In this document: positions 6,884-50,225 of the stretch, in pieces
Numbering within the stretch: the first letter of the stretch is position 1
Layout: every line of letters begins with the position of its first letter
From: an uncultured Ignavibacteria bacterium
Lineage (GTDB): Bacteria > Zixibacteria > MSB-5A5 > SM1-73
Direction: 5' to 3'
Assembly: GCA_964391755.1 (NCBI GenBank)
Contig: CAYMNI010000001.1
Coordinates: forward strand, 1-53,930
Length of the DNA: 53,930 nt
Position numbers and translations under genes: made by a program
The notes under the pieces: model-generated
Databases searched by the model: none
The model's input: only the letters and a program-made list of their open reading frames with translations
Told to the model about the DNA's origin: nothing

Positions 6884-7101
6884 TTCACGTCTCCAAAATA
6901 ATTGCATGGATATCGTCGGCTATTGCAGCACGCCCGATGTGATTTTACCGCTGTAAGAAGGCATTAGGTAACCCGGAGAGTCCACTTGTTCATTCCAACC
7001 GAAGCGGTGGCAACGATGAGAACCGGACTCCAATCTGAAACGTGATAAGGGCGATCTGAATTTGCGGCTTTTTCTCATCCCCCCTGGATTCACGGATCGG
7101 A

Positions 7102-17200: not shown

Positions 17201-20133
17201 AGGGCAATCGGGAAGATCCGGACAGGGGCAGGAGGCCCGATACTGAAGACATAAACTCCAACAGCGTGTTGGATGTAACCAACAAGTACTTCGGGTTCAG
17301 CATAGACTTAAGCAAAGACGAGTACCTGGCCACGGAGAACGAGAAGGGTTGGAAACTGTATCGCATTCCTCTGGCTGATCCCCTCAGTTACGTCAAGGTC
17401 GGCGAACCGGATTGGAGCAACATACGATTCACCAGGCTGTGGGTGACCTCGGATGAGGAGTGTACCATAAAAATAGCCTCTCTCCAACTTGTGGGAAATC
17501 GGTGGCAGAATCTGGGCGTATCCAGCATCACCAACCGTCAAACCGCCCTGCCGATAGGAACTGTGCCGGATGAGGAGTTCGACGTCTACGTGAAAAATAC
17601 CCATGAGGACCCGGATTACTATCCTCCCCCCGGCGTTGCGGGGACGCTCAATCGCCAGACCAACGTTAGGGAGAAGGAACAATCCCTGGTGCTGAAGTTC
17701 GAAAACCTCAAGGCCAATCATCAGGGCGTGACCTACCGAATACTATCCAGTTCCGAAATTTATACCAACTATCGATATCTGGAGATGTTCGTTCACGGTC
17801 CAGAGGACGGCTCTCTTCAAGCGGAGCTTCAGTTCTACATACGACTGGGAACCGACTCCACCAACTTCTACGAGTATCACACCGACGTTTATCCGGGTTG
17901 GGACGAACGAAACAAGGTGGTGATGGACTTCGAGAGCATAACCGCCCTGAAGGCTTACTCCGCGGACGACTCCACCAAACTGGTGGATGGAAAGCTGGAC
18001 GTCACCGAAGGTCCATACCGGGTAAGAGGCAGCCCGGCCTTCAACCGGATAAGATGGTTCTCCATGGGGGTGGTAAACACTGAAGGCGCTCCTGCATCCG
18101 GTGAAGTCTGGGTTGACGAGATGCAGGTAACCGGCATCCGGAAAGAAAAGGGAATCGCAAGCAGCGTGGACGTCACCACCAAACTTGCGGATCTGGCATC
18201 CTTGAACTTCGGCTTCAAGAAACAAGACGCCGAGTACCGTAGTTTGGGGCAAGCGACGGAGAACACCTTATCCACCAGCAGCTACAAAATCAGCCTAAGT
18301 GGCCTTCAGGCTCACAAGTTCCTGCCGGTATCTCTGGGCTATACCCTTCCGCTGAACCTGACCTACTCACATACTCTGAATATGCCCAAATGGAAGTCGG
18401 GCACGGACATTGTGTTGCCCAAGGATCTCCAGGACAAGGAAAAAACGGAGAGCACGACTAAAAGCATCGGTTTTACTCCCCGGTTCGATCATCCCACCCA
18501 GAACTGGCTGGTGGGAAGCACCCTTAGGAAGGTAAGCTCAAGCTTCAACTACAGCACCTCCCACAGCACCAGCTTGCAGAACCCGGTGTCGGAGAGCAAG
18601 TCCACAAACATCACCGTGGGATACTCCTTTCCCCTGTCCCGAGGTCTGAATCTGAAGCCTTTCGGTTGGCTCCAAGGATCCCTGATACCTAAGAGCCTCA
18701 CCCAGATGAACTTCTCCCTTCTGCCCACCAGTCTCTCGGTCAACGGAAACATAAGCCAGAGCCGAAGCCATACCGTGGACCGGGTGGGGGCCGTGTATAA
18801 CACGTATACCAGGACATTCAACGGTAGCTTGACCGCCTCGGCCAGTCCCATAAAAGCGATTCCCTTGAATTACACCATGCGAACCGCCAGGAACATCAAG
18901 GATCCCAAAACGATAAAATACTCGCTTAATCCCAAGAACGCAAAGCTGGGCATCGAGACCACTTATGGGGAGACCTTCTCCACCAAATACACCCCGACTT
19001 GGCTGTCCTTCCTCAACGCCAGCTTCAGCTTCGATTCCAAGTATAACGAAAACGCAGATCAGCTAGACCAGTATAACATCGGAGGTACCAGAAAGGTAAG
19101 CAACAGCAACGACAAAAAGGCAAGTTTCACTCTCGATTGGAAGAAGATTCTGGGAACCGGCACACAGCAGGGTAAAGAAAAGAAACGTTCTTTTCTCAAC
19201 CCCATCCATGTGTTGAGAATGTTCACCAACAGATTCGATGCGGTAAACGTCTCCTGGCGCTCCAATCAAACCTTCAGCAAAAGCGGTCTCCTGGGGCGTC
19301 CCTCATTCGGCTATAGATTTGGTTTTTCAAGTTCCCCCGGGGTGGGGAGGGAGGGTGCGTCTCAGTCCACGGACCGGGAGACGATTTCCGATGGATACAG
19401 CGCCAAAAGCGGGCTCACCCTGCTGGCTACCCACGTCGACTTAAATTATGCCCGAAACGTAAGCCGAACCATCACTTCCAGTGAGGATACCAAGAACACT
19501 ACCACTCGCTTCCCCGATCTGGGCTTCAGCTTGGCCAAGTTGGGCAACCTGGGGATCGTGAAGAGGTTCTTCACGGCTTTCTCCTGTAACGTGGCCTACT
19601 ACAGGCAGGTGGACGAACAGGACAACGAGAAAACCGGCGAGAAACTGACCAGGAAAACCTCTAAGAACTTTTCTCCCTTGGCCTCTATATCGGTGACCTG
19701 GAAGAACGGTGTTCGAACCACAGTAAAGATGGATAAGAAGACCTCTACCAGCGAGAACCTGAGAATCTCGGCCAGCAGCCAGTCTGTCACCAAGACCTAC
19801 GACAATTCGATAAACTTAACCAACAACTATTCCTTCAGCGCTCCCACCGGCATAAAGATTCCTTTTCTCAGAAAGATAAGGTTCAACAGCACTCTCGGTT
19901 TGTCTCTCGGCGTCTCCACGGCCTCGGGAAAAACTGAAAGCTCGGTAGGAGGCCAGCCATTCAACGTCACCGCCAACACCAACCGTCTTACCGTCACCAG
20001 TTCCGCCAGTTACACTTTCTCGTCCCAGGTAACGGGTGGATTTACGGCCAGGTGGGGAGATACCAACGACAAGAAGACCAAAAAAAAGACGCACACCCGA
20101 GAGCTGCAGATTTGGATTCAGATAAGCTTCTAG
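14284..20133 (+). CDS. sprA: T9SS outer-membrane translocon SprA (Sov)
   Basis: 1949 aa with a signal peptide. The hallmark SprA block FQIAGTIGSKISVRVDQDSRRQTDLQNTLQLRYKGEEDEIIQTIEAGNTNLNVSSGLVGY...QGLFGIKATAKIGGWGLTMITSQDKGS lines up with the conserved N-terminal region of Flavobacterium SprA as I recall it. The long C-terminal part has beta-strand periodicity. Confidence 0.9.
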   Translation: MHCPWARYHRTVKGALRSFGLAVLLLLGPASVQLLTCASAQALGLNIRLDEKNRSLVRYGYPSQSVGLSISSDSIPLLEINLRYAQSVLVDYEDGFVAISEKQGYYELYKPIFLTIPTYTTASNQLQFRHDWRTNLNRHFLGTSAGSKALFEWEIPVKFPKVVSAIIGEGGPGLKVTGYRRISFSGRSSWEEGLKNTATSRQSKFPSLHMEQQSTFQIAGTIGSKISVRVDQDSRRQTDLQNTLQLRYKGEEDEIIQTIEAGNTNLNVSSGLVGYGETKQGLFGIKATAKIGGWGLTMITSQDKGSTESADFRAGAETSAKPIRDYDYLKRTFYDLGDGSEFVEGDSIVDIKFFKSNTPISTNSAHPFGVAYIDPNDTSKSGYEGPYYRRFDEIDPDEYFTHSSLHYVQFFSALGETDILAAWYVVWRSAEQSFDTTGLLKDSCTSAEQETCMVLKLLKSDDPKPADYTWEYEWKNIYYLGSRNIQRDGFSLDIYKGLPNAETIDEDPNYQDSTSYLRLFGLDDLDLDAESNPDGIVDYRQIDFGLGYLVFPRRHPFAPDPNVSLTDNPGDTLKEPVKEIYDWSSKSEPRDNSKYYIWVESASRQSEYSLGRAPIIEGSDVVTLNGTRLTRGEDYTIQYEIGEIAFINPDALSPNADLSVSYEYAPLLMPEKKSMFGGMAEYNLGNNLKFGAVGIYKSEKTSDERPRVGQEPSRNFIWGSNLSFNSSPQFLTNMLNAIPWVRTDAASSFTFRGELAQSVPNPNTEDRAFIDDFEGSLQYTDLSIRRGIWTLSGAPQDRELSDRSKLWWYNPYDQELISEIWPDKETERNEERTNILELQFFPSTPHRPSDKEFDSSSVENHWNGIQRSLYAGAYDQTKTKFLELWLHGNQGVLHVDLGEISEDLNGDRLLNTEDKPRNGQRDGILDDDEDLGLDTLGNDQEREFWDCQECEDASGDDWNYDNRYDYSRINGTQGNREDPDRGRRPDTEDINSNSVLDVTNKYFGFSIDLSKDEYLATENEKGWKLYRIPLADPLSYVKVGEPDWSNIRFTRLWVTSDEECTIKIASLQLVGNRWQNLGVSSITNRQTALPIGTVPDEEFDVYVKNTHEDPDYYPPPGVAGTLNRQTNVREKEQSLVLKFENLKANHQGVTYRILSSSEIYTNYRYLEMFVHGPEDGSLQAELQFYIRLGTDSTNFYEYHTDVYPGWDERNKVVMDFESITALKAYSADDSTKLVDGKLDVTEGPYRVRGSPAFNRIRWFSMGVVNTEGAPASGEVWVDEMQVTGIRKEKGIASSVDVTTKLADLASLNFGFKKQDAEYRSLGQATENTLSTSSYKISLSGLQAHKFLPVSLGYTLPLNLTYSHTLNMPKWKSGTDIVLPKDLQDKEKTESTTKSIGFTPRFDHPTQNWLVGSTLRKVSSSFNYSTSHSTSLQNPVSESKSTNITVGYSFPLSRGLNLKPFGWLQGSLIPKSLTQMNFSLLPTSLSVNGNISQSRSHTVDRVGAVYNTYTRTFNGSLTASASPIKAIPLNYTMRTARNIKDPKTIKYSLNPKNAKLGIETTYGETFSTKYTPTWLSFLNASFSFDSKYNENADQLDQYNIGGTRKVSNSNDKKASFTLDWKKILGTGTQQGKEKKRSFLNPIHVLRMFTNRFDAVNVSWRSNQTFSKSGLLGRPSFGYRFGFSSSPGVGREGASQSTDRETISDGYSAKSGLTLLATHVDLNYARNVSRTITSSEDTKNTTTRFPDLGFSLAKLGNLGIVKRFFTAFSCNVAYYRQVDEQDNEKTGEKLTRKTSKNFSPLASISVTWKNGVRTTVKMDKKTSTSENLRISASSQSVTKTYDNSINLTNNYSFSAPTGIKIPFLRKIRFNSTLGLSLGVSTASGKTESSVGGQPFNVTANTNRLTVTSSASYTFSSQVTGGFTARWGDTNDKKTKKKTHTRELQIWIQISF

Positions 20134-37372: not shown

Positions 37373-37812
37373 GCTGCCTCCTGACGGGTTCCTATGAGAG
37401 ATAAGGTGATTGGAACCAGTCTACCTCTTATGACTGCAAAACCGTGTAATAACTCCGGCGACCGAATCAAGCCGGAGTACCTCGCGGTCGATGAAACCAG
37501 CCCATCCTCGGCTGAATGCCACCGCAACCGAGCCCAACCGTCTATCTCGCCTGCGAGGTTTCATCCGTCCCTCAAGTTTCTGTATCGGTCGATCGTCGAA
37601 AAAAGATGAGTCCCCCGACGGCACCGGATTTACCTGCGCCTGCGGTCTGATCTAAGGAGGTTGTTCGCACCGATTCCGGACCTGTAAATTATCTACTCGT
37701 TGGATGAAAATTCTATGAAGAACCTGCAAATGTAGTCGATAAGAAGATATGTCGAACTGAGATGACAAGACGAAAACGTTGTGCTTCACCGGACAATCTA
37801 CCAAATCCGAAA

Positions 37813-38763
37813 ATGATGAGCGTCCCTACACGGTTACTCTTGTGCGCGCTGCTCCTGTTTTCGCTTCCCGGGCTGGCTTCGCCTGAGGAGAAGAGGATCG
37901 CCATCGTGAAAAGCAGCAACTCCCCGTCGTTTCAGGCCGCGACCGAGGGCGTAAAAAAGGAGATCAGAAAAGGCGACCTTAACCCGGTCTTCATAGAATA
38001 TGATCTCTCTCTGGGCCTTCCGGATGAGAAACAGGTGGTGGAAGAGGTAAGGGAGCTGAGACCGGATTTGATCGTAACCATAGGCTCGAGATCCACCGCC
38101 CTTTTCTCTCAAAAGATCACCGACATACCCATAATCTTCTCCGAGGTCTTGAATCCCATCTCCAGCGGTTTTGCCCAGAGCATGGGGTCCTCTGCTAAGA
38201 ATCTGACCGGGGCGTCGCTGGACATTCCTATCCGCACGCAACTGGACAAGTTCAAGCTCATCGTCCCCGGTATGCGCAAAGTGGGCGTGATCTACACCCA
38301 TGACTCCGAACCGGTGGTAAGAGAGGCGCGAAGAGTATGTGAGGAAATGGGATTGGAGTTGGTTTCGGTCGACATATCCTCCGAGAAAGAGATTCCCCAG
38401 GCAATCGAGAACTTGGGAAAGAGGGTCGATGGCCTGTGGGCCGTAGCCGACACGGTGATTTTCACTCCCCAGTCCACCCAATACCTGCTTCTCTTTAGTC
38501 TGCGCAACGGCATCCCCTTCGCGGGACCCTTCACCTCGTTCGTCAAGGCGGGAGCGCTCTTCACCTTGGCCTGGGACGACAAGGATGTGGGCAGACAGTC
38601 GGGAGAGTTGGCTCTGAGGGTGCTGGCAGGGGAGGATCCAGGACAGATACCCATCACAACTCCCAGAATGATCTATTTGATTCTTAACTTGAGGACGGCC
38701 GAGCAGATAAACTTGGACATTCCTCCTCATATAGTCAGCGTGGCCAAGGAGGTCTACCAATGA
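37813..38763 (+). CDS. Periplasmic substrate-binding protein, ABC_sub_bind (PF04392-like) family, with no cognate permease or ATPase
   Basis: Track ORF starts at 37762. The start at 37813 gives signal peptide MMSVPTRLLLCALLLFSLPGLASP. Blocks DLIVTIGSRSTALF, IPIIFSEVLNPISSGF, NLTGASL, VGVIYTHDSEP, DGLWAVADTVIF, IPFAGPFTSFVKAGAL match my recollection of that family. Confidence 0.75.
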   Translation: MMSVPTRLLLCALLLFSLPGLASPEEKRIAIVKSSNSPSFQAATEGVKKEIRKGDLNPVFIEYDLSLGLPDEKQVVEEVRELRPDLIVTIGSRSTALFSQKITDIPIIFSEVLNPISSGFAQSMGSSAKNLTGASLDIPIRTQLDKFKLIVPGMRKVGVIYTHDSEPVVREARRVCEEMGLELVSVDISSEKEIPQAIENLGKRVDGLWAVADTVIFTPQSTQYLLLFSLRNGIPFAGPFTSFVKAGALFTLAWDDKDVGRQSGELALRVLAGEDPGQIPITTPRMIYLILNLRTAEQINLDIPPHIVSVAKEVYQ

Positions 38764-40856
38764 CCTGGAGATTCCGCCATCTGCCAATGGGTCTGAAGAC
38801 CAAGTTCGTACTGACCATCTCTTTTCTGATACTTATCACCTCTGTCATCTTAAGCGTTTTTCTAATCGAGAAACAGAGCCAGTTGATACAGAGGGAACTG
38901 GAAAAGAGGGGAGAGTCCATGGTCAGAAACCTGGCACACAACAGCGAATACGGTGTGTTGGTGGAGAGCGAACACCTGTTGTCCAATCTGATGGAGGGTC
39001 TGTTTCTGGAAGAAGAGGTGGTTCACGTAGACATCCGGGACAAAAGGGGGAGGATTCTGGCAGAATGGGGAAGGACCAAGGAATATCACCAAATATATAA
39101 AGAAAGACTCACCTCGTCCGAGGGCCGAAGCAACAGTCAAGGCGTCACCAAACGGTACTTCACCGCCTTCGATATGGAGTTTTACAACTTCTCCTGTCCC
39201 ATAAAAACCACCCGAGTGGAAAGATCGAAGGAGGAAGTGGGAATCCTAGAGAACAAAAAGGACCTGGTGACCAGAGAAGAGGTAATCGGTAGCGCCAACG
39301 TGGGAATGTCTCTTCAGGACATGCGACGGGAAATCGCCGATATGACCCGGATCGTGGTTCTGATTACATTGCTGGTGGTGTCTGTGGGAATCGTCCTGAC
39401 GATATTTCTGGTCAATATCTTCATAAGACCCGTGAAGAGGTTGGTTTGCGCCACAGAGAGAGTCGCCAGCGGTAATCTCTATCAGATGGTCAATGTCACC
39501 ACCCAGGATGAAATCGGGATTCTGGCGTCTTCTTTCAACCGCATGATCGTCTGCCTGAAGGAGTCCAGAGAGAAGATCGAGGAGTACAACCGGACATTGG
39601 AGAGAAAGGTCAGGGAGAGGACGGCTGAGTTGGAGAAAACTACTCGGCTTCTGCAGGTGGAATACGATCGATTGGAGGCCATCATCCACTCCCCCAACCT
39701 GGGAATAATCATCGAGGATAAGGACTGCAATATTAAGTTCATGAACAAGTTCCTGACCGAGACATATGGGAACCAGATCGGGGAAAAGTGCTATGAGAAG
39801 TTCAAGGGCAGAAAGGAGAAGTGCCCGGTGTGTCCCATCGACGAGATTCTGGTAAAGGGCAAGAAAACCTTCACCTATCTGGACCAAGACGCACAAGGAC
39901 ACCATTTCGAGCTTTCCGCCAGCCTGTTTCAGGATGAAAAGGGGGAGCAGTATATTCTGGAGACCATGAGAGACATCACCGAACAGAAGCAGCTTGAAAT
40001 AAAAGTGCAGGAGTACACCCGTAACCTGGAGAAGACCAATCGTGACCTGGAGAACGCCCTAAAAAGCCTGAAGGAGACCCAGGTGCAGCTGATTCAGGTG
40101 GAGAAAATGGCGGCGGTGGGGCAACTGGCCGCGGGTGTGGCGCATGAGCTGAACAATCCTTTGGGAGGAATTCTGGGATACTCCCAGTTTGCGCTGGAGA
40201 AGATCAACCAGAAGCCGTTCAGCCAGTTCAGCCAGGAGGATTCCGCCGACTTCCTGCAGTACCTCGGAGACATAGAACAGCAGACCAGGAGGTGTCGGTC
40301 CATCATTCAGAACCTCCTGAAGTTCAGCCGGGCTTCCCGCAAGGAGGAGTTCGAGCCGACGGACGTGAACCAGGTGATAAAAGAGACTCTCTCCTTTACC
40401 AAACATCAGGTAGAGAAGAAAAAAGTTCGACTGCTGCAGAACCTGCAAGAACGCCTGCCACTGATTGAGGGGAATGCCAGCCAACTACAGCAGGTCTTTA
40501 CCAACCTGATCCTGAATGCCGTTCATGCCATGCCCCAGGGAGGAACCCTGACCATAAGCACGATGATGAACAAAGATGAGAAGAGAATTGAGATAAGCTT
40601 CACCGATACCGGGGTGGGAATTGGCCAGGAGAATATGGACAAGATCTTTGAGCCCTTCTTCTCCACCAAAAAAGTGGGGGAAGGAACCGGATTAGGTCTT
40701 TCGGTGAGCTATGGCTTGATCAAAAATCATCGAGGCGAGATCCAGGTCACAAGCGAGCAAGACCGCGGGACCACGTTTACGGTGTTCCTGCCGGCTCCGG
40801 AGGAGAAGCTTACAGCGATATCCAGTGACCATCTGCATTCCGTCTCTGGTCGCTGA
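38760..40856 (+). CDS. Sensor histidine kinase (2 TM, extracytoplasmic domain, HAMP, Cys-rich PAS, HisKA, HATPase_c)
   Basis: 698 aa. ATGA overlap with the binding-protein gene. TM helices at about aa 15-36 and 198-222. HAMP IRPVKRLVCATERVASGNLYQ...DEIGILASSFNRM. PAS with four Cys. H-box AAGVAHELNNPLGGILGY. N/G boxes LILNAVHAM, DTGVGI, GTGLGLSVSY. Confidence 0.9.
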   Translation: MTWRFRHLPMGLKTKFVLTISFLILITSVILSVFLIEKQSQLIQRELEKRGESMVRNLAHNSEYGVLVESEHLLSNLMEGLFLEEEVVHVDIRDKRGRILAEWGRTKEYHQIYKERLTSSEGRSNSQGVTKRYFTAFDMEFYNFSCPIKTTRVERSKEEVGILENKKDLVTREEVIGSANVGMSLQDMRREIADMTRIVVLITLLVVSVGIVLTIFLVNIFIRPVKRLVCATERVASGNLYQMVNVTTQDEIGILASSFNRMIVCLKESREKIEEYNRTLERKVRERTAELEKTTRLLQVEYDRLEAIIHSPNLGIIIEDKDCNIKFMNKFLTETYGNQIGEKCYEKFKGRKEKCPVCPIDEILVKGKKTFTYLDQDAQGHHFELSASLFQDEKGEQYILETMRDITEQKQLEIKVQEYTRNLEKTNRDLENALKSLKETQVQLIQVEKMAAVGQLAAGVAHELNNPLGGILGYSQFALEKINQKPFSQFSQEDSADFLQYLGDIEQQTRRCRSIIQNLLKFSRASRKEEFEPTDVNQVIKETLSFTKHQVEKKKVRLLQNLQERLPLIEGNASQLQQVFTNLILNAVHAMPQGGTLTISTMMNKDEKRIEISFTDTGVGIGQENMDKIFEPFFSTKKVGEGTGLGLSVSYGLIKNHRGEIQVTSEQDRGTTFTVFLPAPEEKLTAISSDHLHSVSGR

Positions 40857-40911
40857 GAGACCGCAAGTCGAAATCTCGTCGGAATATGTGACCGGTGACC
40901 AGGAGAAGCGC

Positions 40912-41280
40912 ATGAGAATCTTGGTGGTGGACGACGATCCCATAATTCGCAAGCTTCTGCTTGAGGTTCTCACCAACGACGGACATCTGGTGACCACGGC
41001 CGAGGATGGGGTCGAAGCCTTAGAGAAAGCCAAGAGTCAATCGTTCGGGCTGATCTTTATGGATGTGCACATGCCCAGGATGAACGGCCTGGAGGCGCTG
41101 GTAGCCATTCGAGCAATACAGCCTGATCTGCCGGTGGCCATGATGGATAGCTATCCGGACTTGCTGGCAAGGCAGGCGGTAGGCCGGGGCGCCCTGACCT
41201 GCATGCACAAGCCTTTCGAGCTGAAGGAAATGAGGACTATCATCGAGGAAGTGGGAACGTCCATTCTCCGGGAGAAATAG
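40912..41280 (+). CDS. Single-domain response regulator (CheY-like receiver)
   Basis: The track ORF starts at 40825, inside the kinase gene. I prefer M30 at 40912 (MRILVVDDDPIIRKLL...). Phospho-acceptor context LIFMDVHMPRMNG, conserved K in HKPF. No output domain. Confidence 0.85.
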   Translation: MRILVVDDDPIIRKLLLEVLTNDGHLVTTAEDGVEALEKAKSQSFGLIFMDVHMPRMNGLEALVAIRAIQPDLPVAMMDSYPDLLARQAVGRGALTCMHKPFELKEMRTIIEEVGTSILREK

Positions 41281-41285
41281 GTTCT

Positions 41286-42980
41286 ATGCCTGTCAAAGAC
41301 GAACCCATCAGAATTCTGGTGGTGGATGACGAAGAGATTATGCTAAAGCTGGCGTGCGACGCGCTGCGAAGCCAAGGACATCAGGTGACCGGCACCTCCA
41401 GACCCATGGAGGCGCTGGACAAGTTGAAGCAGCAGAAATTCGACTTCATCCTCACCGACATCAAGATGCCCGAGATGGACGGGATGGAGCTGATCCAATC
41501 CGCCCATACCATCGATCCCTCCATGGGAGCTATCTTCATGACCGGATATGCCAGCCTGGACACGGCCAAGAGGGCCATCCAGGAAGGGGCTTACGACTAT
41601 ATACTCAAGCCTTTCGATCTGCAGGAGATCAGGAGTGCGGTGGCCCGGGCCGTAAAGAAGAGAACTCAGAGTATGGCGGATGGGAGAAAAAAAGGCCTCT
41701 CTCAGCTGTTCGACCTCAACCGGATACTGCACGCTGCTGGCGACAGCAGGAGTCTGCTCAAGCTGTCTTTGGAGTTCGCTCTGATGCAGAGCCGAATGAG
41801 AACCGGAATCATCCTCTATTGGACGACTGGAAACCGGAAACTTCAGATACTCCGAGTCAAGGATCTAAATCAGGGTGTCTTCCTGGAAGCAACTGCAGAA
41901 CTTGAGGAAAGCGTGCTGTCGGAATGGTCTCAGATCAAGGACATCATCCAAATCCAGAACGTCGGGGATTACCCCCTGTTCTCTCAGCTTCTATCTCTAC
42001 TCCGGGACTCTGCGATGGTTGACGATTTCCTACAATCGGAAGAGGAATCAATCATCGTCCCCCTGCGCAAGACCGGTTCCACCAGCGGGATGATTGTACT
42101 CAACGGATTCGCCGGTGAGCAGAAGCTGTCGGAGGAGGACATCAAAGTTCTGGCCATCCTGGGAACCCAGTCGGCCATCTCCATGGAGAATCTCACCCTG
42201 CTGCTGGAGACTCAGAGATCTTACCGGGAGCTGCAAAACCTTCAGGAGCAAGTGATCAGCCTGGAGAGAATGGCCACACAGGGAAGGATCTCGGCCGAGA
42301 TAGGTCACGAGCTGAACAACTATCTCACAGTGATCATGGGCAACTTCGAACTGTTGAGCCTAAAGATCAACCGGGGACAGATCGAGTCCCTTGACAAGCA
42401 GTTGGACATCATATCATCCAACCTCCAAAAGATAAAGGGATTTGCGGAGGGTCTATTGGATTTCTCCACCATGAAAGCCGAGAAAATCGAGTGCGATGTA
42501 AACGATCTCATAGAGAAAACTTTGGTCTTCATCAAGCCCCAGAGCCTATTCCGGAATATATCGTTTGACGTCCAACTTGAACCGGATATTCCCTATTTGC
42601 TGGTGGATGCCGGCCAGATACAGCAGGTCCTCTACAATCTCCTGAAGAATGGAGCCGATGCTATGGGGAAAAGGAAAGGAGAGGGCGGCACCATCACCGT
42701 CGGAACCCGGCACCTGTCGGAGAAGAAGACCGTCGAGATCTGGGTCAAAGACAGCGGAAAGGGTATGTCGGAGGAGGAACAACGAAGGGTGTTCGAAAGG
42801 GGCTTCACCACCAAACAATCAGGTCACGGAATGGGATTGTCGATATGCAAGAGGCTGATCGATGCTCACGGTGGCACCATCGACGTGGAAAGCCAACTCG
42901 GCCAGGGCACCTGCTTTCGGGTGGGGCTTCCCTGTGATCAGACGGCAGGAGAGGGAGGAAACGCAGGGACTGACTTTTAA
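41286..42980 (+). CDS. Hybrid receiver-histidine kinase (REC + GAF-like + HisKA + HATPase_c)
   Basis: 564 aa. IRILVVDDEEIML...FILTDIKMPEMDG...LKPF receiver, ~190-aa central domain, H-box SAEIGHELNNYLTVIMGN, NLLKNGADAM, DSGKGM, GHGMGLSICKRL. Confidence 0.9.
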   Translation: MPVKDEPIRILVVDDEEIMLKLACDALRSQGHQVTGTSRPMEALDKLKQQKFDFILTDIKMPEMDGMELIQSAHTIDPSMGAIFMTGYASLDTAKRAIQEGAYDYILKPFDLQEIRSAVARAVKKRTQSMADGRKKGLSQLFDLNRILHAAGDSRSLLKLSLEFALMQSRMRTGIILYWTTGNRKLQILRVKDLNQGVFLEATAELEESVLSEWSQIKDIIQIQNVGDYPLFSQLLSLLRDSAMVDDFLQSEEESIIVPLRKTGSTSGMIVLNGFAGEQKLSEEDIKVLAILGTQSAISMENLTLLLETQRSYRELQNLQEQVISLERMATQGRISAEIGHELNNYLTVIMGNFELLSLKINRGQIESLDKQLDIISSNLQKIKGFAEGLLDFSTMKAEKIECDVNDLIEKTLVFIKPQSLFRNISFDVQLEPDIPYLLVDAGQIQQVLYNLLKNGADAMGKRKGEGGTITVGTRHLSEKKTVEIWVKDSGKGMSEEEQRRVFERGFTTKQSGHGMGLSICKRLIDAHGGTIDVESQLGQGTCFRVGLPCDQTAGEGGNAGTDF

Positions 42981-43196
42981 ATCCGGATGGGGAACTCTTA
43001 GTCTCCGGAAGAGACGACGGCTATGTCGGTATTTGTCACCTAAAGTTCTGAAGGGAAAAGACGATCAAGTAAATGGTACACCCCGGTATAGGGAAACAAC
43101 CAGTTTCGTATGGACGTTCTCTCACTTTAACTAGGCAGAATGCCAGACCATAAGGATGTACAAGTAAGTACTTTTACCAAAAGAGGAGGGCGCAAA

Positions 43197-45896
43197 TTGA
43201 ATACCAAAAACGATCTGCTTCAGCCAAGACTGCGGCTTGCAAAGGCAGCTGTCATAGCCGGTCTGCTGGTGCTTGTGGCAGGCCAACTCGGCTGGGCCGG
43301 TACTGCCGGGAAGATCGCCGGGGTCATAAAGGATTCGGAGAGCGGAGTAGCCTTGCCCGGCGCAAGCGTGATCATACAGGGAACCAGTATCGGCACTTCC
43401 ACCGACGAGGATGGGGAATACTTCATTCTGAATGTGCCGGTGGGAACCTACACCGTGAAAGCCTCACTTATAGGCTATCAGACCGTTATGCAGACACGGG
43501 TAACGGTTCTTCTGGATCTGACCACTCCCTTGGATTTCGCATTGAGCTCCACGCCGGTGGAACTGCGCGACGGCGTCACCGTGGTGGCCACGCGTCCTCT
43601 CATTCAAAAAGACCTGACCTCTTCCACCAATATGGTGATAAGGGAACAGCTGGACAATCTCCCCAATGCCGTAGGAATTCAAGAGGTCATATCCAATATG
43701 GCCGGAACCGTAGTTGACGATGAGGGTGTGCTCCACGTGCGCGGCGGACGCAACGCCACGGTAAGCTACTTCTTGGACGACATCTACGTTCAGGACCCGC
43801 TTGTGGGTTATGCGGGAACCCGGATATCTCCGGAAGCTCTGGAGGAACTGAACCTGACCACCGGAGGATTCACGGCCGAATATGGAGAGGCTCTCTCGGG
43901 TGTGGTCAGCGCCATCACCAAAGAAGGAGGCTCCTCCTTTTCCGGAAAGATCAAAGCGTACGATGGTTTGGTTCATTCCTACGACGTTCAGACCGGCCAA
44001 TACGGAGACCTGCAGAGGAACAACAACCATTCTCTGATATTCAACTTGGGGGGACCTCTGACCTTGAGAAGAAACGACAAGGCCACCTTCTTCTTCTCGG
44101 GGGAGAAGATATGGAACGACGGTTATCTTCCCCATAACCAAAGGGAGATTACCACCGGGACCGGAAAAATCAGCCTACGACCGGTCAGCAACCTCAAGCT
44201 GGTTCTCAGCGGCAACTACTACAGCCGGGAACTTCTCAGGTACAGCCACCGGGACGTGAACAGCATCTCCTATGACTTCAATCTGGACGGATTGGGAAAA
44301 ATACGCAACAAATCTTATAGCCTGGGAGCCAAAATAACCTATCCCTCCTCCAGTAATACGTTCTATTCGATTAAGCTGAGCCACTTCTACACCGACTACA
44401 AGTTAGCCCCGGAGCATCTGTTTGATCTTTACTGGGACCAGTGGCCCGGCTATGAGGAAAACTCCGACGGCGTTTACGTGGGCACCATAGACGACGACAA
44501 CTACAACCCTGCGGAGGAATATTTCTACACCGGCTACACCATCGCACCCGACTACTACCCTCGATATCACTATCGCCGGTCCGAATACACCAGCCTGGGA
44601 TTCGACTTCATCAGCCAGGCCGACAAACATAACCAGATCAAGTTTGGCGGAGAGTACCGGGCAAATCGGCTGAGATGGGACGACAAGCAATTCTTCAACA
44701 CACGGCCATACGGGGAAAAGTACGAGGTGGATCCCAACTACGCTGCCGTCTACCTCCAGGATAAACTCGAGTTGAAGGAGATAATCGTCAACGGCGGAAT
44801 TCGTCTGGATTACCTGGATGCAGACGTCGACTACTGGGATGATCCGGTGACCAAGGAAAACTTAGTCCATACCGAATCCAAGATGCAGATCAGCCCCCGT
44901 CTGGGCATCTCGCATCCCATCTCCGATCGGACGGTGGTTCATTTCAGCTACGGTTATTACTTCCAGGTGCCGGCGTACCAATACATGTTCACCAATCTCC
45001 AGTCAGACCTCACCACCGGTTATCCCGTGGTGGGCAACCCGGACATGCAAGCGGAAAAGAGCATAGCCTACGAATTGGGCTTAAACCACGCTCTCACCAA
45101 CGACCTCACCATGAAACTGACCACCTATTACAAGGATTTGAACAATCTGGCCTCCACTCGGGAAGTGGTATATGCCGGCGGCTCCTATACCCAAATCATC
45201 AACGCCGACTACGGAACGGTAAAGGGAGTAGACGTGATATTGACCAAAAGGCCGACTCGGGGTAATCTATCCGGCACCTTCAACTACTCTTACATGATTG
45301 CCAAAGGAAACGCTTCCGACGTTTACGAAGGATACTACGACTACTTCACTCTGGGAACCACCGCTCCGGTGTGGCCGGTAAGAGAATATCCGTTGGACTT
45401 CGATCAGCGGCATACGTTCAGCATCGACTTGGACTACCGGGTGCCCCGGGACTGGAAAGGAAACCTCCTGGGCGTTCCGATTACGGGAGCGTGGGGATTG
45501 AACGTGTTGTCCAAATACGGCAGTGGCATGCCTTACACCAAAACCGACGATCAGGGAAACCGGGTGGGTGCTTTAAACGAGGGAAGAATGCCTGCCACCT
45601 ATCAGGTCGATCTCAAATTCAACAAGGATTTCTATCTTTTCGGGGATAAGGATCTTCACCTTTCCTTCTTCACCGAAGTGGTCAATCTGTTCGATCGGAG
45701 AAACGTCCTGAGGGTTTACTCCAACACCGGCAAACCGGACGATGACGGATATCACTATGAGCTGACGGCCGATCCGGATGGAGAAGGTCCGCTGACTGCT
45801 GAGGACGTCAACCGTTACTATCGTCTTCTGGCCAAAGATCCGGAGAACTATGATGCTCCTCGCACCTTACGCTGGGGAATCGAATTCGTCTTCTAA
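43197..45896 (+). CDS. TonB-dependent outer-membrane receptor with N-terminal carboxypeptidase-regulatory-like domain (SusC/Oar-like architecture)
   Basis: Track ORF starts at the ATG at 43140. A TTG at 43197 has AGAGGAGGG 7 nt upstream and yields a normal signal peptide (LNTKNDLLQPRLRLAKAAVIAGLLVLVAGQLGWA). Motifs: GKIAGVIKDSESGVALPGASVIIQG...GEYFILNVPVGTYTVKASLIGY, plug (VHVRGGR...), long barrel ending RTLRWGIEFVF. Confidence 0.85.
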   Translation: MNTKNDLLQPRLRLAKAAVIAGLLVLVAGQLGWAGTAGKIAGVIKDSESGVALPGASVIIQGTSIGTSTDEDGEYFILNVPVGTYTVKASLIGYQTVMQTRVTVLLDLTTPLDFALSSTPVELRDGVTVVATRPLIQKDLTSSTNMVIREQLDNLPNAVGIQEVISNMAGTVVDDEGVLHVRGGRNATVSYFLDDIYVQDPLVGYAGTRISPEALEELNLTTGGFTAEYGEALSGVVSAITKEGGSSFSGKIKAYDGLVHSYDVQTGQYGDLQRNNNHSLIFNLGGPLTLRRNDKATFFFSGEKIWNDGYLPHNQREITTGTGKISLRPVSNLKLVLSGNYYSRELLRYSHRDVNSISYDFNLDGLGKIRNKSYSLGAKITYPSSSNTFYSIKLSHFYTDYKLAPEHLFDLYWDQWPGYEENSDGVYVGTIDDDNYNPAEEYFYTGYTIAPDYYPRYHYRRSEYTSLGFDFISQADKHNQIKFGGEYRANRLRWDDKQFFNTRPYGEKYEVDPNYAAVYLQDKLELKEIIVNGGIRLDYLDADVDYWDDPVTKENLVHTESKMQISPRLGISHPISDRTVVHFSYGYYFQVPAYQYMFTNLQSDLTTGYPVVGNPDMQAEKSIAYELGLNHALTNDLTMKLTTYYKDLNNLASTREVVYAGGSYTQIINADYGTVKGVDVILTKRPTRGNLSGTFNYSYMIAKGNASDVYEGYYDYFTLGTTAPVWPVREYPLDFDQRHTFSIDLDYRVPRDWKGNLLGVPITGAWGLNVLSKYGSGMPYTKTDDQGNRVGALNEGRMPATYQVDLKFNKDFYLFGDKDLHLSFFTEVVNLFDRRNVLRVYSNTGKPDDDGYHYELTADPDGEGPLTAEDVNRYYRLLAKDPENYDAPRTLRWGIEFVF

Positions 45897-45916
45897 AAAG
45901 CCAAGGAGGTAACTAA

Positions 45917-48568
45917 ATGCTCGGAAGAAAAACCGTCCTTTTAGTGGGGGTTTTGCTCTTGCTCCCGTGGGCACAGAGTATTTCCAAAGATCATGCGAGC
46001 TTAGAACCCCCAACCAACGTTCAGGATCAGATCATCCACAACAAGGGCAACATCGCCACCACCGTCCAAAATTGGGGTTGGATCGGAGGACAGAGCCATC
46101 TGGGAAAGCCATCGGGCGAGTGGCCCAAAGGATCTGAGCGTAATTACTTAGCGGAGATCAAATACTGGATGGGAGCTACCAAGCCCAACGGAGATACGGT
46201 GGTGGCCAACACGGATGATGACTTCATGCCCCTGCCTTCCATCATCGGGGGCCAGGAGAGTTACAGAATCCACCTGTCCACGGATACTACCTCCTATGAT
46301 TATGACCCCTCCGACACCTTGGGGTTGGGCATCGGGAAGCCAGCTTACGGGTGGAGGGTATGGGACAGCCAGAGCGAACAATGGGTGTACAATCAGGTTT
46401 GGACCTTCGCCTCTGGCACGGTGGAGGCAGGACCCGTCTCCCTTCAGGAGAGCCACTACCGGTTCTCGGATGGCAATAGCGGCGCTGCGACTCTGGGCCT
46501 GGAGCTTGCCCAGACCATCTATCAATGGAACTACGACTACAATCAGGACTATTTCTTCGTGGTGCTGGAAATCAAGAACATCTCGGACGACGACTATTCG
46601 GATTTCGCCTTTGGACTTTATTGCGACTTCGACGTGGGAGGAATGGTCACCGGAACCTTCGAAAACGGCAGGTTGGGAGACTTAGTAGCGTTCGATTCCT
46701 CCCTGAACCTCGCCTGGACCTATGATGAGGACGGCTACGATGAGGGCTGGGGTCCTCTGGTCAAAACCGGGGTTATGGGAACCAAATACATCGAGACTCC
46801 CGATGATATCGGCATGACTGCCTTCCGAACCGGACAATGGGAGCAACTGCCGGCCGATGATGAGGGGAAATATCAGTTCATCAACAGCCAGCAGTTCGAC
46901 CAAAGCCTCCCCCCTACCGATCAGTATTACGTCCAGTGCACCCGAGGAATAGACCTGTCCGCAGGCAAAACCGTTCGTGTCGTCTTTGCCTTGATCGCCG
47001 GGTATGACGAGGAGGATCTGAAAGCTAATGCGGCCATGGCTCAGGCTGTTTACGACAACCATTTCATCGGACCCGAACCTCCCCAGCCGGCCAAACTCGT
47101 CGCCACTCCGGGGTACCAACGGATTAAGCTCACCTGGGATAACAGTTCGGAGTCTTCCGTGGATCCGCTTAGCGGCGAGGAGGATTTCAAAGGATACAAG
47201 ATCTATCGAAGCACCGATATGGGGGAAACCTGGGGTGATTTGGTGAGGAACTCAGACGGCAGCCTGGGGCCGGATTACGTGCCCATAGCCATGTTCCAGA
47301 GAGAGGATTCTGATGATATCCTTCCTCACACTTACGTAGACGACGGCCTTGTCAACGGGATAGAATACTGGTATTCGGTGGTCTCCTTCGACCAAGGCGA
47401 TACCTCCGTTCCCGTCGATCCCCTTCAGACGGCCTATGGCAGGCCGGGCGAGGACTACAACTGTGCCTTCTGTTATCCTCGGACCGATCCGGCCGGATAT
47501 GTTCCTCCCGATGCGACGGTCAAGCACAATTACTATGGATCCGAGGAGGAAAGCGACGGAGCGGTGGTTCCCACGGTATTTGACGAAAGTGCCTTAACCG
47601 ATCACGATTACAGGGTGGTTTTCGCCGAAGATCCGTTCGCCACCTATTGGCATATTGTCGATAACGTCACCGGCGACACGGTACTCGGGAACCAGACGGA
47701 TCAATCCGGGGATGCCGGAAACTACCCGGTGGTGGATGGTATGCAGGTAATCGTCACCAACGGAGAGAGAGAGCCGGCCGGTTACGGTCAGACTCAATTT
47801 GGCACCTCCAGCAGCAGCACGTTGCACATGGAGTATTTTTTGGGAAGTATGAACGAGCTCTTCGGCTTCCCCATGGGAGGCGACGTGCACTTCCGATGCA
47901 CCTATGAGTTCAGGTTCACCCAGGACGGATCTCAGGCTTACAGTTTCTTTGACGACATCACCCCGGTATGGGTACCCTTCGAGGTGTGGAACACCACCAC
48001 CAACCAGCAGGTGCTGGTGGAGGTTTATGACCAGGCACATAACGGAGTGTGGGACGTGCATCACTTAGATTACCTGGACATAGTCAACCTGCCCTACGAT
48101 GGGGAGCCGCATCCGGAAGCTTTTCCCTACTATCATTCCTGGTTCTTCGCCTTTTCCCCTACCGATACCGAATACTCCGTAGGAGACGTGTATCAAATCA
48201 AAGGCGCCAAGCTGAATGGGGCGGATGACGAGTTCGTGTTCCAGTCGGGAGGAGTGGATGCGGGGAAGGCCAAGGAAGAGCTGGGGGAGATTAAGGTGGT
48301 GCCCAATCCTTACATAGCATGTGCCGAGTGGGAGGTCACCGAAGGCATCAGAAAGATGCAGTTCACCCATCTTCCAGACCGGTGCACCATCAGAATCTAC
48401 ACCTTGGCCGGTGACCTGGTGAGGGCCATCCGGCATGACAACGGAACCGGAACCGAGGACTGGGACCTGCTGAACAAGAACCAGCAGGGAATCGTTCCCG
48501 GTGTGTATTTCTATCACGTGGACTCCGAGTACGGGCAGAAGCTGGGCAAGTTTGTAGTGATCAAATGA
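45917..48568 (+). CDS. Secreted 883-aa protein of unknown function with FN3-like module and T9SS type-A CTD
   Basis: AAGGAGG RBS. Signal peptide MLGRKTVLLVGVLLLLPWAQS. FN3-like PPQPAKLVATPGYQRIKLTWDN...FKGYKIYRSTDMGETW...NGIEYWYSVVSFD (nt ~47070-47400). CTD at the C-terminus. Confidence 0.75.
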   Translation: MLGRKTVLLVGVLLLLPWAQSISKDHASLEPPTNVQDQIIHNKGNIATTVQNWGWIGGQSHLGKPSGEWPKGSERNYLAEIKYWMGATKPNGDTVVANTDDDFMPLPSIIGGQESYRIHLSTDTTSYDYDPSDTLGLGIGKPAYGWRVWDSQSEQWVYNQVWTFASGTVEAGPVSLQESHYRFSDGNSGAATLGLELAQTIYQWNYDYNQDYFFVVLEIKNISDDDYSDFAFGLYCDFDVGGMVTGTFENGRLGDLVAFDSSLNLAWTYDEDGYDEGWGPLVKTGVMGTKYIETPDDIGMTAFRTGQWEQLPADDEGKYQFINSQQFDQSLPPTDQYYVQCTRGIDLSAGKTVRVVFALIAGYDEEDLKANAAMAQAVYDNHFIGPEPPQPAKLVATPGYQRIKLTWDNSSESSVDPLSGEEDFKGYKIYRSTDMGETWGDLVRNSDGSLGPDYVPIAMFQREDSDDILPHTYVDDGLVNGIEYWYSVVSFDQGDTSVPVDPLQTAYGRPGEDYNCAFCYPRTDPAGYVPPDATVKHNYYGSEEESDGAVVPTVFDESALTDHDYRVVFAEDPFATYWHIVDNVTGDTVLGNQTDQSGDAGNYPVVDGMQVIVTNGEREPAGYGQTQFGTSSSSTLHMEYFLGSMNELFGFPMGGDVHFRCTYEFRFTQDGSQAYSFFDDITPVWVPFEVWNTTTNQQVLVEVYDQAHNGVWDVHHLDYLDIVNLPYDGEPHPEAFPYYHSWFFAFSPTDTEYSVGDVYQIKGAKLNGADDEFVFQSGGVDAGKAKEELGEIKVVPNPYIACAEWEVTEGIRKMQFTHLPDRCTIRIYTLAGDLVRAIRHDNGTGTEDWDLLNKNQQGIVPGVYFYHVDSEYGQKLGKFVVIK
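48290..48568 (+). other. T9SS type-A C-terminal sorting domain of the 883-aa protein
   Basis: IKVVPNPYIACAEW...CTIRIYTLAGDLVRAIRHDNGTGTEDWDLLNKNQQGIVPGVYFYHVDSEYGQKLGKFVVIK. The motif order (NP[FY], I-x-I[YF]-x-x-x-G-x-LV, W-[DG]-x-x-N-x-x-G-x-x-V-x-[SP]GVY-x-Y, K-x-x-VI[KR]) is the same as in the CTD at 5015-5326. Confidence 0.7.
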
Positions 48569-48724
48569 TTCAATCAAACCGGCCAGCCGGATGGGCGACG
48601 CAGAAGGAAGAATATATGATGGGGTATTGTCAACAGTCTTCCGTGCGGCTTAACCCGGGAGATGAAAAACCGTGCTATGAGGAGACTTAAACAGCTGAAT
48701 CCTGCAAAAGAAGGGGGAGAAAAC

Positions 48725-49702
48725 ATGAAATCGAGGTCCTTTGGTCTGCTGCTCATCCTGCTGATCTTCTGTCTGACCAGCCCGGCCCGCTCCGGAGAGT
48801 TCTCGCGGGTGGGAACGGCTGGAGCACAATTCCTCAAGATCGGCATGGGAGCCAGATACGTAGCCATGGGGGAAGCGTCGGTCGCCTGCGTGAACGACGC
48901 TTATGCCATGTACTGGAATCCTGCAGCGCTGACCGAGATATCTTCCTCAAACCTGGTTCTCACCAACGTAGACTGGATTTCGGACGTTCAGCTCAACCAC
49001 GCCAGTTTTGGGAGATCGGTTGATGAGTACAGCGCACTGGGCATCAGCCTTACCGCCTTAACCATGGGAAACATGGAGGTAACCACGATAGAGGAGCCGG
49101 AGGGGACCGGAGAGACTTTTACCGCCTCCTCCTATGCCTTGGCCGTGGGATATGCCAGAAAGTTCACCGACAGGTTCTCCGCAGGGATAAGCGGAAAGTA
49201 CATTTGGGAGAGGCTCTCGGAGGAGACCGCCTCCGGTTTGGCTTTTGACTTCGGCACTCTGTTTCTGACCGGGTTCAGAAACTTGAGGATTGGAATGAAC
49301 ATCTCCAATCTGGGTCCGGAGATGAAACTGGAAGGACCGGAACTGAACTATTCCCATAATACCAAACTGCAGGTGGATCCATATGATCTTCCTCTGACTT
49401 TCAGGTTCGGGATGGCCTACGACTTCATCGACTCTCCGGAATCGAGATTCACCGTCACCGCGGAAGCAAAACACCCCAACGACAACGTCCAGCAGGCAAG
49501 TTTCGGTGGCGAATATCTGTGGAAGGATATTTTCTCTCTACGCGGAGGTTACAAGTTCAACTACGAGGAAGAGGGCTTGACCCTGGGGGGTGGAATGAAG
49601 CTCAAAACCGGAAAGGACACCAAGCTCGACATCAGCTATGCCTGGGCGGATTTCTCGCGTCTTTCCAGCGTGCATCGCTTCTCCTTGGGTTTCGAGTTCT
49701 GA
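48725..49702 (+). CDS. PorV/PorQ-family (FadL-like) outer-membrane beta-barrel
   Basis: Track ORF starts at 48662. The ATG at 48725 has GGGGGAG upstream and gives signal peptide MKSRSFGLLLILLIFCLTSPARS. Family N-terminal block VGTAGAQFLKIGMGARYVAMGEASVACVNDAYAMYWNPAALTEI. Ends ...HRFSLGFEF. Confidence 0.75.
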   Translation: MKSRSFGLLLILLIFCLTSPARSGEFSRVGTAGAQFLKIGMGARYVAMGEASVACVNDAYAMYWNPAALTEISSSNLVLTNVDWISDVQLNHASFGRSVDEYSALGISLTALTMGNMEVTTIEEPEGTGETFTASSYALAVGYARKFTDRFSAGISGKYIWERLSEETASGLAFDFGTLFLTGFRNLRIGMNISNLGPEMKLEGPELNYSHNTKLQVDPYDLPLTFRFGMAYDFIDSPESRFTVTAEAKHPNDNVQQASFGGEYLWKDIFSLRGGYKFNYEEEGLTLGGGMKLKTGKDTKLDISYAWADFSRLSSVHRFSLGFEF

Positions 49703-50030
49703 TCTGGGCAACTTCACTCGTAGGGCGGCGATGTCACAGTCGCTGCTCTCTATCGAACTAAGGGCCAAACCTAACCGCCAAGAAGGTCTGGCCATTAGGC
49801 AGGTACAGTTTTAAGTTCACCCGCTCAAAGTAACACTCTTCATATCTCTACTCCTCCCCGGCAGTTATTCCGGCCCCAGGCAGGGACCGGGTGACTCGCG
49901 CCGACCTTCAGTAAAACACCTGACATCAAAACTCTCCCTGACGGATGCCTCTATACCAAGCAGTACCATATGGGGTATTCCAAAAAGAAGGTTAAGGTTT
50001 TCCTTGGATGAGTCGATAAAACCATTGATC

Positions 50031-50063
50031 TTAACGTCCCCACATTTGATTAACGTCCCCACA
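50031..50063. repeat. Tandem direct repeat TTAACGTCCCCACA x2 (19-nt period), with a third TAACGTCC copy at ~50207-50214 just before the 50226 start
   Basis: Read directly from the sequence in the 523-nt non-coding gap upstream of the glycan cluster. Candidate operator for a direct-repeat-binding regulator. Confidence 0.6.
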
Positions 50064-50225
50064 ACTGCTACCCACAGACGACGGCAAACGCCTATTACGG
50101 CCTTGGCTGTAAAGGAAGTCTGAATCCGTATTCGCTGCCGTTTCCAGTCCGGTAGAGAAGCGGTAGACCTGTATCCCGATTCTCTCCTTCTGCCCAAGGC
50201 CCGATGTAACGTCCAACAACAGCAC

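Follow-up and report, generated by a model that had tools for sequence, protein, structure and literature searches.

Glycan capture in Bacteroidota is explained by the SusC/SusD system. How a TonB-dependent transporter (TBDT) of the outer membrane could acquire a surface partner where no SusD-like lipoprotein is encoded beside it is the question raised by a locus on contig CAYMNI010000001.1 (GenBank assembly GCA_964391755.1, an uncultured bacterium labelled Ignavibacteria and placed by GTDB in Zixibacteria), whose 53,930 nucleotides were analysed as a whole and are called the window hereafter. Three co-directional genes, referred to as the cassette, encode a TBDT, a secreted protein of 883 amino acids (G2) and an outer-membrane barrel of the PorV/PorQ family. 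On balance, the cassette is probably an outer-membrane nutrient-uptake module, which would do the job of SusC/SusD without a lipoprotein: a type IX secretion system (T9SS) would deliver G2, and the barrel would hold its uncleaved C-terminal domain (CTD). This reading is built on the conservation and joint divergence of the three genes, on the nature of the three proteins and on the genes that surround the cassette in other phyla.

Gene order and joint divergence of the cassette

Zixibacteria were scanned with one genome per GTDB species, 80 of the 124 encoding stretches being compared. The order TBDT, G2, PorV-like barrel was kept in every evaluable locus of the 80 species, at 43-83% identity (tblastn). 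The triad was also retained in 7 of 7 further contexts, namely Calditrichia, Melioribacteraceae, Marinimicrobia, KSB1, Stahlbacteria, a Zixibacteria paralogue and one further metagenome-assembled genome (MAG), and no SusD family appeared in the Pfam lists of loci L083-L089. In 80 metagenome loci, which were found with a profile of distant family members and whose genes were placed by hidden Markov models (HMMs), the TBDT lay directly upstream of G2 (61 of 61 evaluable loci) and the PorV-like gene directly downstream (70 of 71), the lone departure being one back-to-back cassette array. Gaps between the genes of annotated loci range from an overlap to 188 nt, most of them not exceeding about 25 nt. 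More than 150 independent loci show this arrangement, and the cassette is inherited as a unit across Zixibacteria and at least seven other lineages of the Fibrobacteres-Chlorobi-Bacteroidetes (FCB) group. A preliminary description of this DNA had made conservation of the three-gene order across FCB genomes and MAGs a test of the module, and the order is indeed conserved; the cassette itself is far older and more widespread than Zixibacteria.

The divergence of the individual parts was then compared over 124 cassettes. The distance matrices of the TBDT, the barrel and the N-terminal and middle domains of G2 correlate with r=0.91-0.96, which indicates that the three genes diverge as one unit. 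Mean distances rise from the CTD of G2 (0.48) through the barrel (0.57), the G2 N-domain (0.60) and the TBDT (0.61) to the middle domains of G2 (0.66). After controlling for the other parts, the TBDT shows partial correlations of 0.59 with the barrel, 0.44 with the middle domains of G2 and 0.39 with its FN3-like domain. The conservation pattern fits an invariant anchor, made of the CTD and the barrel, combined with variable specificity parts. Besides, the TBDT and the barrel of the window are homologous end to end with those of distant cassettes (30-33% and 33-42% identity, respectively). For G2, the identity with distant members reaches 49% in the CTD, 39% in the FN3-like domain, 23% in the N-domain and 19% in the middle domains, so that the CTD ranks first in conservation, the FN3-like domain second and the middle domains last.

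Variants of the arrangement were also observed. Locus L145 (1078-11019) reads TBDT-G2-G2-PorV-like, and in L166 (1-11845) two cassettes stand back to back, the second G2 being followed by another TBDT. A 563-aa FlgD_ig/CTD protein is inserted between TBDT and G2 in L087 (3492-12110), and a short G2-like open reading frame (ORF) lies ahead of the full G2 in L098 (1835-10471). In 35 of the Zixibacteria loci compared (e.g., L001 13865-15451, L002 13824-15401 and L023 9890-11374), the PorV-like gene is succeeded by a fourth gene of ~525 aa. The window and its close clade lack this gene and have an amine-oxidase-like gene and a methyltransferase at that place. This fourth gene has no Pfam or PDB match. 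Its assignment as a peptidase was rejected, the HExxH motif of the L001 copy being missing in the L002 copy and no family being matched. Finally, third-party annotation (TPA) MAG contigs named "uncultured Ignavibacteria" (L003, L004, L006, L016-L019 and others) carry syntenic orthologues 70-83% identical to the window, and these labels are probably wrong.

Properties of the three proteins

The preliminary description placed the three co-directional genes directly after a two-component block, with gaps of 20 nt and about 155 nt. This layout was recovered from the ORFs, TBDT and G2 being separated by 20 nt and G2 and the barrel by 156 nt when the barrel starts at ATG 48725. This ATG is the probable true start of gene 3, its ribosome-binding site (GGGGGAG) being better than the one at 48662, and it gives a product of ~325 aa. 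For the TBDT, whose longest ORF begins at 43140, the probable true start is the TTG at 43197 further downstream, which is preceded by a GAGGAGG ribosome-binding site. Each of these two starts yields a normal signal peptide. The G2 start has an AAGGAGG ribosome-binding site 7 nt 5' of its ATG.

Gene 1 had been described as a carboxypeptidase-regulatory-like N-domain, a plug and a large barrel ending in RWGIEFVF, all of which were found again. The Pfam scan located CarboxypepD_reg at residues 59-136 (64.7 bits), the plug PF07715 at residues 156-255 (27.6 bits, cut-off 23.9) and the TonB_dep_Rec barrel PF00593 at residues 380-849 (91.6 bits, cut-off 27). A signal peptide comes first, a TonB-box-like string (DGVTVVATRP) lies between CarboxypepD_reg and the plug, the barrel is of the 22-strand type, and no STN-type signalling N-domain was detected with Pfam. 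With plug, barrel and TonB-box-like string all in place, gene 1 encodes a TBDT. As for gene 3, the family NF033709 (PorV/PorQ) was matched end to end (243.4 bits, cut-off 90, model positions 1-326 of 326), as the earlier assignment to this family implied. The barrel is not PorV, PorQ or PorV2 proper, since it misses the equivalog cut-offs of PorV (NF033710, 121.5 vs 250 bits), PorQ (NF033711, 113.3 vs 220) and PorV2 (NF052325, 74.5 vs 325); eight distant cassette barrels (180-226 bits with NF033709) likewise stay below the cut-offs of PorV, PorQ and PorV2. Essentially every cassette, tandem arrays included, has its own PorV/PorQ-family barrel, which speaks for a stoichiometric subunit and against a shared shuttle and upholds, at family level, the idea of a dedicated PorV paralogue.

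G2 bears a signal peptide without lipobox, as had been stated, and a lipobox-like string occurs in only 2 of 145 family members, so that the family is predicted to consist of non-lipoproteins. In the proteins scanned across 37762-52830, no Pfam or NCBIfam match to SusD/RagB was obtained, and the earlier remark that no SusD/RagB-like or other lipoprotein gene follows the TBDT stands. No Pfam domain was found above cut-off in G2 or in 9 distant members submitted to the scan, and NCBIfam models matched members of the family in the tail only. The family is large: a profile search of 1.84 billion cluster representatives (50%-identity clusters) returned 10,113 matches at E<=1e-3 and 1,101 at E<=1e-30. 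A first search gave 452 homologues, the full-length ones listed measuring 854-908 aa and the named close ones all being Zixibacteria. Named hosts comprise Stahlbacteria, WOR-3, Calditrichota, KSB1, Marinimicrobia, Delongbacteria, Ignavibacteria/Melioribacteraceae and a "Bacteroidetes" MAG, with all proteins annotated as hypothetical; some orthologues carry the NCBI annotation "T9SS type A sorting domain-containing protein".

The structure of G2 was predicted with AlphaFold2 from a 145-sequence alignment. This model (predicted local distance difference test, pLDDT, 90.1; predicted template modelling score, pTM, 0.71) replaced a first one made from 25 Zixibacteria sequences, whose N-terminal half was poor (pLDDT 66) and whose Foldseek matches were generic FN3 arrays only. 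The predicted protein is all-beta with several domains, i.e., a ~350-residue N-domain, an FN3-like domain, beta-sandwiches, a short conserved helix and the CTD. The FN3-like module reported beforehand was found again at fold level only, with AlphaFold2 and Foldseek. In Foldseek searches of the PDB, the N-domain matched with a probability of 1.00 over ~365-430 aligned columns (TM-score 0.20-0.23, as normalised by the whole 883-aa query) the non-catalytic supersandwich of GH94 cellobiose/laminaribiose phosphorylases, a GH149 phosphorylase, GH116, dextran dextrinase and cyclic glucan synthase. The (alpha/alpha)6 catalytic domain is absent, the model being all-beta after residue 385 save short helices, and no Pfam glycoside hydrolase (GH) family was matched. 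Assignment of G2 to a glycoside hydrolase or phosphorylase with an N-terminal supersandwich (GH94, GH149, GH116 or GH15-like) was rejected for lack of this barrel. Because the N-domain residues that are invariant family-wide are limited to Asn, Asp and Pro, a binding or structural role seems to fit better than a known active site. A PDB sequence search with G2 profiles returned nothing for the full protein. PorZ, the top Foldseek match by E-value, was discarded as a homologue of G2, the overall TM-score being 0.12 and the tail alone being comparable. Remote homology and structure prediction hence relate G2 to a non-catalytic supersandwich and to beta-sandwiches and to no characterised enzyme family, in line with the surface partner that the preliminary description had envisaged.

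That description also held that the ~90 C-terminal residues of G2 match "motif for motif" the CTD of the metalloprotease encoded at 5015-6907 of the window and constitute a T9SS type-A sorting domain. The resemblance is real but weak, with 23% identity and a pairwise E-value of 0.002, and the wording was too strong. The tail is a CTD of the T9SS type, of a specialised subclass that scores just under the generic cut-offs: TIGR04183 gave 20.1 bits against a cut-off of 23, and PF18962 gave no match. An HMM of the G2 CTD scores 108-146 bits on G2-like proteins and 18-28 bits on ordinary T9SS cargo of the same loci and on the window protease, so that the tail is best classified as a T9SS-type CTD of a distinct subclass. 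In the AlphaFold2 model, this region mostly exceeds a pLDDT of 90. Sorting signals of the T9SS are usually poorly conserved.

Across the family, the most frequent NCBIfam match was to the CTD part of PorZ (18/25 orthologues and 9/22 distant members), which gave 19.2 bits on the CTD of the window protein. Generic TIGR04183 was matched at E<=1e-3 in 12/25 and 4/22, and the PorU CTD in 1/25 and 5/22, respectively. In a profile search of PDB sequences with the G2 CTD, PorZ (5m11, E=0.037) and PorU (6za2, E=0.082) rank first, and no other CTD protein was returned. The CTDs of PorZ and PorU are described as unprocessed (PMC10202324), and both proteins as tethered to the outer membrane via PorQ and PorV (PMC12365241); shielding of CTDs from cleavage by cognate PorV-like barrels has been suggested in a review (PMC10202324). 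The likeness of the G2 CTD to PorZ and PorU would be consistent with a CTD that is retained and bound to a barrel, without being proof of it. As for the secretion system itself, the presence of sprA in the same window, already pointed out, was borne out by TIGR04189 (728.7 bits, cut-off 200), and the host can be taken from this gene to possess a T9SS. The other core genes, porKLMN, do not occur in the window.

Genomic context, proposed mechanism and competing explanations

The neighbourhood of the cassette differs between lineages. In Melioribacteraceae, the triad is accompanied by GH16, a CBM9 T9SS protein, a GH16-T9SS protein, two GH3, MFS and SSF transporters and a ROK kinase; in Marinimicrobia by LacI, a PKD T9SS protein, GH94, two glycoamylase-like proteins and an ABC sugar-binding protein; in Stahlbacteria by a GH18-T9SS protein and a glucosamine-6-phosphate isomerase; and in Calditrichia by a BNR-like T9SS protein and a peptidase M14. 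Among the 98 nearest flanking ORFs of loci L090-L138, Por_Secre_tail occurred 22 times, FlgD_ig 12 times, LacI-type regulators 7 times and sugar ABC binding proteins 4 times, and GH94, glycoamylase, alpha-amylase and CBM20 were present as well. Outside Zixibacteria, the usual neighbours of the cassette are thus LacI regulators, glycoside hydrolases, enzymes secreted by the T9SS and sugar transporters of the inner membrane. Such loci follow the logic of a polysaccharide utilisation locus (PUL), the triad taking the position of SusC/SusD. In Zixibacteria, a sensory block adjoins the TBDT wherever the upstream flank reaches, co-directional in the clade of the window and divergent in others; in the window, it is devoid of any DNA-binding or other recognisable output domain of Pfam or NCBIfam. 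Eight of the 98 flanking ORFs were, unexpectedly, PPIC-type rotamases, a hint that one subgroup has its own folding helper in the periplasm.

From these elements, the following course of events is proposed. G2 would be carried across the inner membrane by Sec, then across the outer one by the T9SS. The CTD would remain uncut and stay bound to the PorV-like barrel of the cassette, as PorZ does on PorQ and PorU on PorV, a bond that would fix G2 at the cell surface beside the TBDT. The variable N-terminal and middle domains of G2 would capture the substrate and pass it to the TBDT for import energised by TonB. In Zixibacteria, the neighbouring system of binding protein and histidine kinase may then detect, in the periplasm, the imported ligand or a product derived from it. 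A stronger form of this proposal, put forward tentatively, is a stable tripartite machine, in which G2 would sit with its uncleaved CTD on the barrel, the barrel would dock laterally on the TBDT, and the supersandwich and FN3-like domains would form a movable substrate-binding lid. Such a machine might be the main, and possibly ancestral, device of glycan or nutrient import in the non-Bacteroidia FCB phyla (Zixibacteria, Marinimicrobia, Calditrichota, KSB1, Ignavibacteria, WOR-3 and others). For the PorV family, this would mean a second general function, that of a subunit anchoring uptake complexes in the membrane.

Other explanations of the cassette were weighed against this uptake module. 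The barrel could be a dedicated carrier for export or attachment of G2 by the T9SS, the TBDT being merely co-regulated and making no contact with G2, which would act as a free or loosely attached binder or enzyme. Cognate barrels are established for type B CTD cargo and for PorZ/PorQ (PMC10202324, PMC12365241), and the G2 CTD being a distinct subclass would suit such a helper. However, the TBDT lies directly upstream of G2 in 61/61 evaluable metagenome loci and in every Zixibacteria locus, the genes often overlapping or standing very close together, the covariation of the TBDT with the middle and FN3-like parts of G2 persists once the other parts are controlled for, and the ordinary T9SS cargo of the same loci has no barrel of its own. 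We therefore consider a helper devoted to G2 alone, although it is the main alternative, unlikely. A role in envelope signalling or surface structure, at least in Zixibacteria, where the cassette would present a ligand to the kinase system or build a surface layer or an adhesin and the sugar loci elsewhere would represent later recruitment, is improbable to a greater degree. The Zixibacteria cassette is indeed linked to the PF04392/kinase/regulator block and not to carbohydrate-active enzymes (CAZymes) or inner-membrane transporters, and it is single-copy-like and very conserved, as illustrated by the narrow length range of its listed full-length G2 homologues and by identities of 47-83% among the loci retrieved. 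Yet the TBDT lacks the STN-type domain, each of the three proteins is homologous over its whole length to its counterpart in loci clearly devoted to sugar utilisation, and sensing of an imported ligand is fully compatible with uptake. In PULs of Bacteroides, hybrid two-component sensors likewise sense the imported ligand alongside uptake.

A third possibility is an export device, in which the TBDT, like Oar of Myxococcus, would export G2 or another protein independently of SprA and the barrel would serve as a surface receptor. The CarboxypepD_reg-type N-domain of the TBDT, a partial match to the Oar-type family PF25183 (OMP_b-brl_4; 40 bits, cut-off 30) and the requirement of Oar for PopC secretion (PMC6434023) speak for it. 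This PF25183 match spans only about 100 of 838 model positions (388-487), and PF00593 fits the barrel better; moreover, G2 has a T9SS-type CTD, the organism encodes SprA, and every named host belongs to FCB lineages. Catabolic and import genes surround the cassette in relatives, and since these sister cassettes lie near LacI, glycoside hydrolases and sugar transporters, uptake is favoured over an Oar-like export, which appears very improbable. Lastly, a chance adjacency of three unrelated outer-membrane genes can practically be dismissed, being refuted by the recurrence of the order in so many independent loci of several phyla and by a co-divergence above r=0.9.

Several observations nevertheless weigh against the proposed uptake module. 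The CTD of the window G2 stays below the curated cut-off of every T9SS CTD model, and its likeness to PorZ and PorU is weak (19-30 bits, PDB E-values of 0.04-0.08). The mirror-tree analysis revealed no specific covariation of the CTD with the PorV-like barrel (partial r=0.07), and the conservation of the CTD could reflect constraint from the shared T9SS machinery. G2 could also be an enzyme of unrecognised type. Finally, no CAZyme, peptidase or inner-membrane transporter lies beside the Zixibacteria cassette, and the uptake role in this phylum rests on homology to the cassettes of other phyla.

No description of a cassette combining a TBDT, a CTD protein and a PorV-like barrel was found in the open-access literature and bioRxiv, including the Melioribacter and Caldithrix genome papers and a T9SS review. 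The cassette therefore looks like known parts, i.e., TBDT-based uptake with a surface partner, in an undescribed and unusually widespread architecture. It would fill a gap in our understanding of glycan capture by Marinimicrobia, Calditrichota, KSB1, Ignavibacteria and Zixibacteria, phyla that abound in the oceans, in sediments and in bioreactors, and it comes in thousands of variants with an un-modelled family of ~900-1100-aa proteins at its centre. Carbohydrate-utilisation loci of non-Bacteroidia FCB genomes would become annotatable, many orphan "PorV/PorQ family" genes would gain a function, and building import machines would join secretion, attachment and gliding among the roles of the T9SS.

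Features of the window and relation to known systems

Coordinates of the cassette, its domains and associated genes within the window
Feature	Position	Strand	Remarks
TBDT (gene 1)	43140..45896	+	918-aa ORF; Pfam; 30-52% identity with TBDTs of distant cassettes over the whole length
G2 (gene 2)	45917..48568	+	883 aa; predicted secreted, non-lipoprotein, all-beta multidomain
G2 N-domain, beta-supersandwich	46019..47071 (residues ~35-385)	+	Foldseek/PDB; putative ligand-binding part
G2 FN3-like domain	47084..47401 (residues ~390-495)	+	fold level only; signature DFxGYxIYRS
G2 middle beta-sandwich domains	47459..48256 (residues ~515-780)	+	AlphaFold2; most variable region
G2 CTD	48293..48565 (residues 793-883)	+	predicted T9SS-type, specialised subclass; preceded by conserved helix 782-791
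PorV/PorQ-family outer-membrane barrel (gene 3)	48662..49702	+	NF033709
Sensory block	37762..42980	+	Pfam and NCBIfam; directly 5' of TBDT
PF04392 periplasmic binding protein	37762-38763	+	sensory block
HAMP/PAS histidine kinase	38760-40856	+	sensory block
Receiver-only response regulator	40825-41280	+	sensory block
Receiver-kinase hybrid	41286-42980	+	sensory block
SprA/Sov T9SS translocon	14284..20133	+	1949 aa; TIGR04189, PF14349; outside cassette

Beyond the cassette, SprA matches TIGR04189 in three stretches, the best of which covers model positions 375-1819 of 2319, and is shortened relative to the model. The protease gene at 5015-6907, on the minus strand, encodes an HExxH metalloprotease of the MXAN_6640 family (226.8 bits), a second putative T9SS cargo; its C-terminal tail gave 20.8 bits with TIGR04183 (cut-off 23). 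With scores just below this cut-off for both the protease and G2, generic T9SS CTD models appear to under-call Zixibacteria cargo. A 453-aa ORF at 28647-30008 (minus strand) joins a complete TatD-type DNase (residues 2-251) to a radical SAM domain (residues 271-428), which may be a fusion or a missed stop, and a 386-aa ORF at 51670-52830 has a Trm112p-like zinc-ribbon N-terminus fused to a class I SAM methyltransferase domain. Consensus scans for promoters and terminators between 37300 and 50300 gave counts at or below shuffle expectation, and neither the Rfam scan nor the tRNA scan of the window returned a match.

Compared with known systems, the cassette shares features with several of them and coincides with none. 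Like the TBDT-only carbohydrate utilisation loci of Proteobacteria (CUT loci), it places a non-SusC TBDT in sugar-utilisation loci without SusD, and like Oar of Myxococcus, its TBDT has an N-domain of the CarboxypepD_reg type. Unlike CUT loci and Oar, it comprises a partner of T9SS type and a PorV-family barrel, and the export link of Oar is without support here. The pairing of a cargo gene with its own adjoining barrel recalls type B CTD cargo with PorP/SprF, such as SprB-SprF of Flavobacterium johnsoniae, where the barrel is needed for secretion or anchoring. However, the G2 CTD does not reach the type B model CHU_C (PF13585, 17.8 vs 27 bits), the barrel scores only 20.7 bits with PorP_SprF as compared with 243 for the PorV/PorQ family, and the known type B cases have no TBDT. 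In PorZ-PorQ and PorU-PorV, sub-complexes of the T9SS attachment complex of Porphyromonas gingivalis, a T9SS CTD protein is also paired with a PorV-family barrel, and it is the CTDs of PorZ and PorU that the G2 CTD most resembles, if weakly. G2 lacks the beta-propellers of PorZ and the sortase domain of PorU, and the cassette pair differs in being encoded with a TBDT, in having many paralogous copies and in residing in catabolic loci rather than secretion-machinery loci.

A further comparison is with the SusC/SusD (RagA/RagB) pairs of Bacteroidota PULs. The cassette TBDT is not a member of the SusC/RagA family, as its match to TIGR04056 amounts to 62.6 bits (cut-off 368.25) and is confined to residues 58-190. 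Unlike the SusD lipoprotein with its TPR fold, the G2-type partner is an all-beta protein of ~880-1100 aa that carries a signal peptide I as well as a T9SS-type CTD. The cassette moreover has an obligatory third gene, the PorV-family barrel, and its hosts are non-Bacteroidia FCB phyla. As in SusC/SusD, however, a CarboxypepD_reg-type TBDT lies immediately 5' of a large predicted surface binding partner, and as in SusC/SusD PULs, the relatives of the cassette occur in many diversified copies, together with regulators, glycoside hydrolases and inner-membrane sugar transporters.

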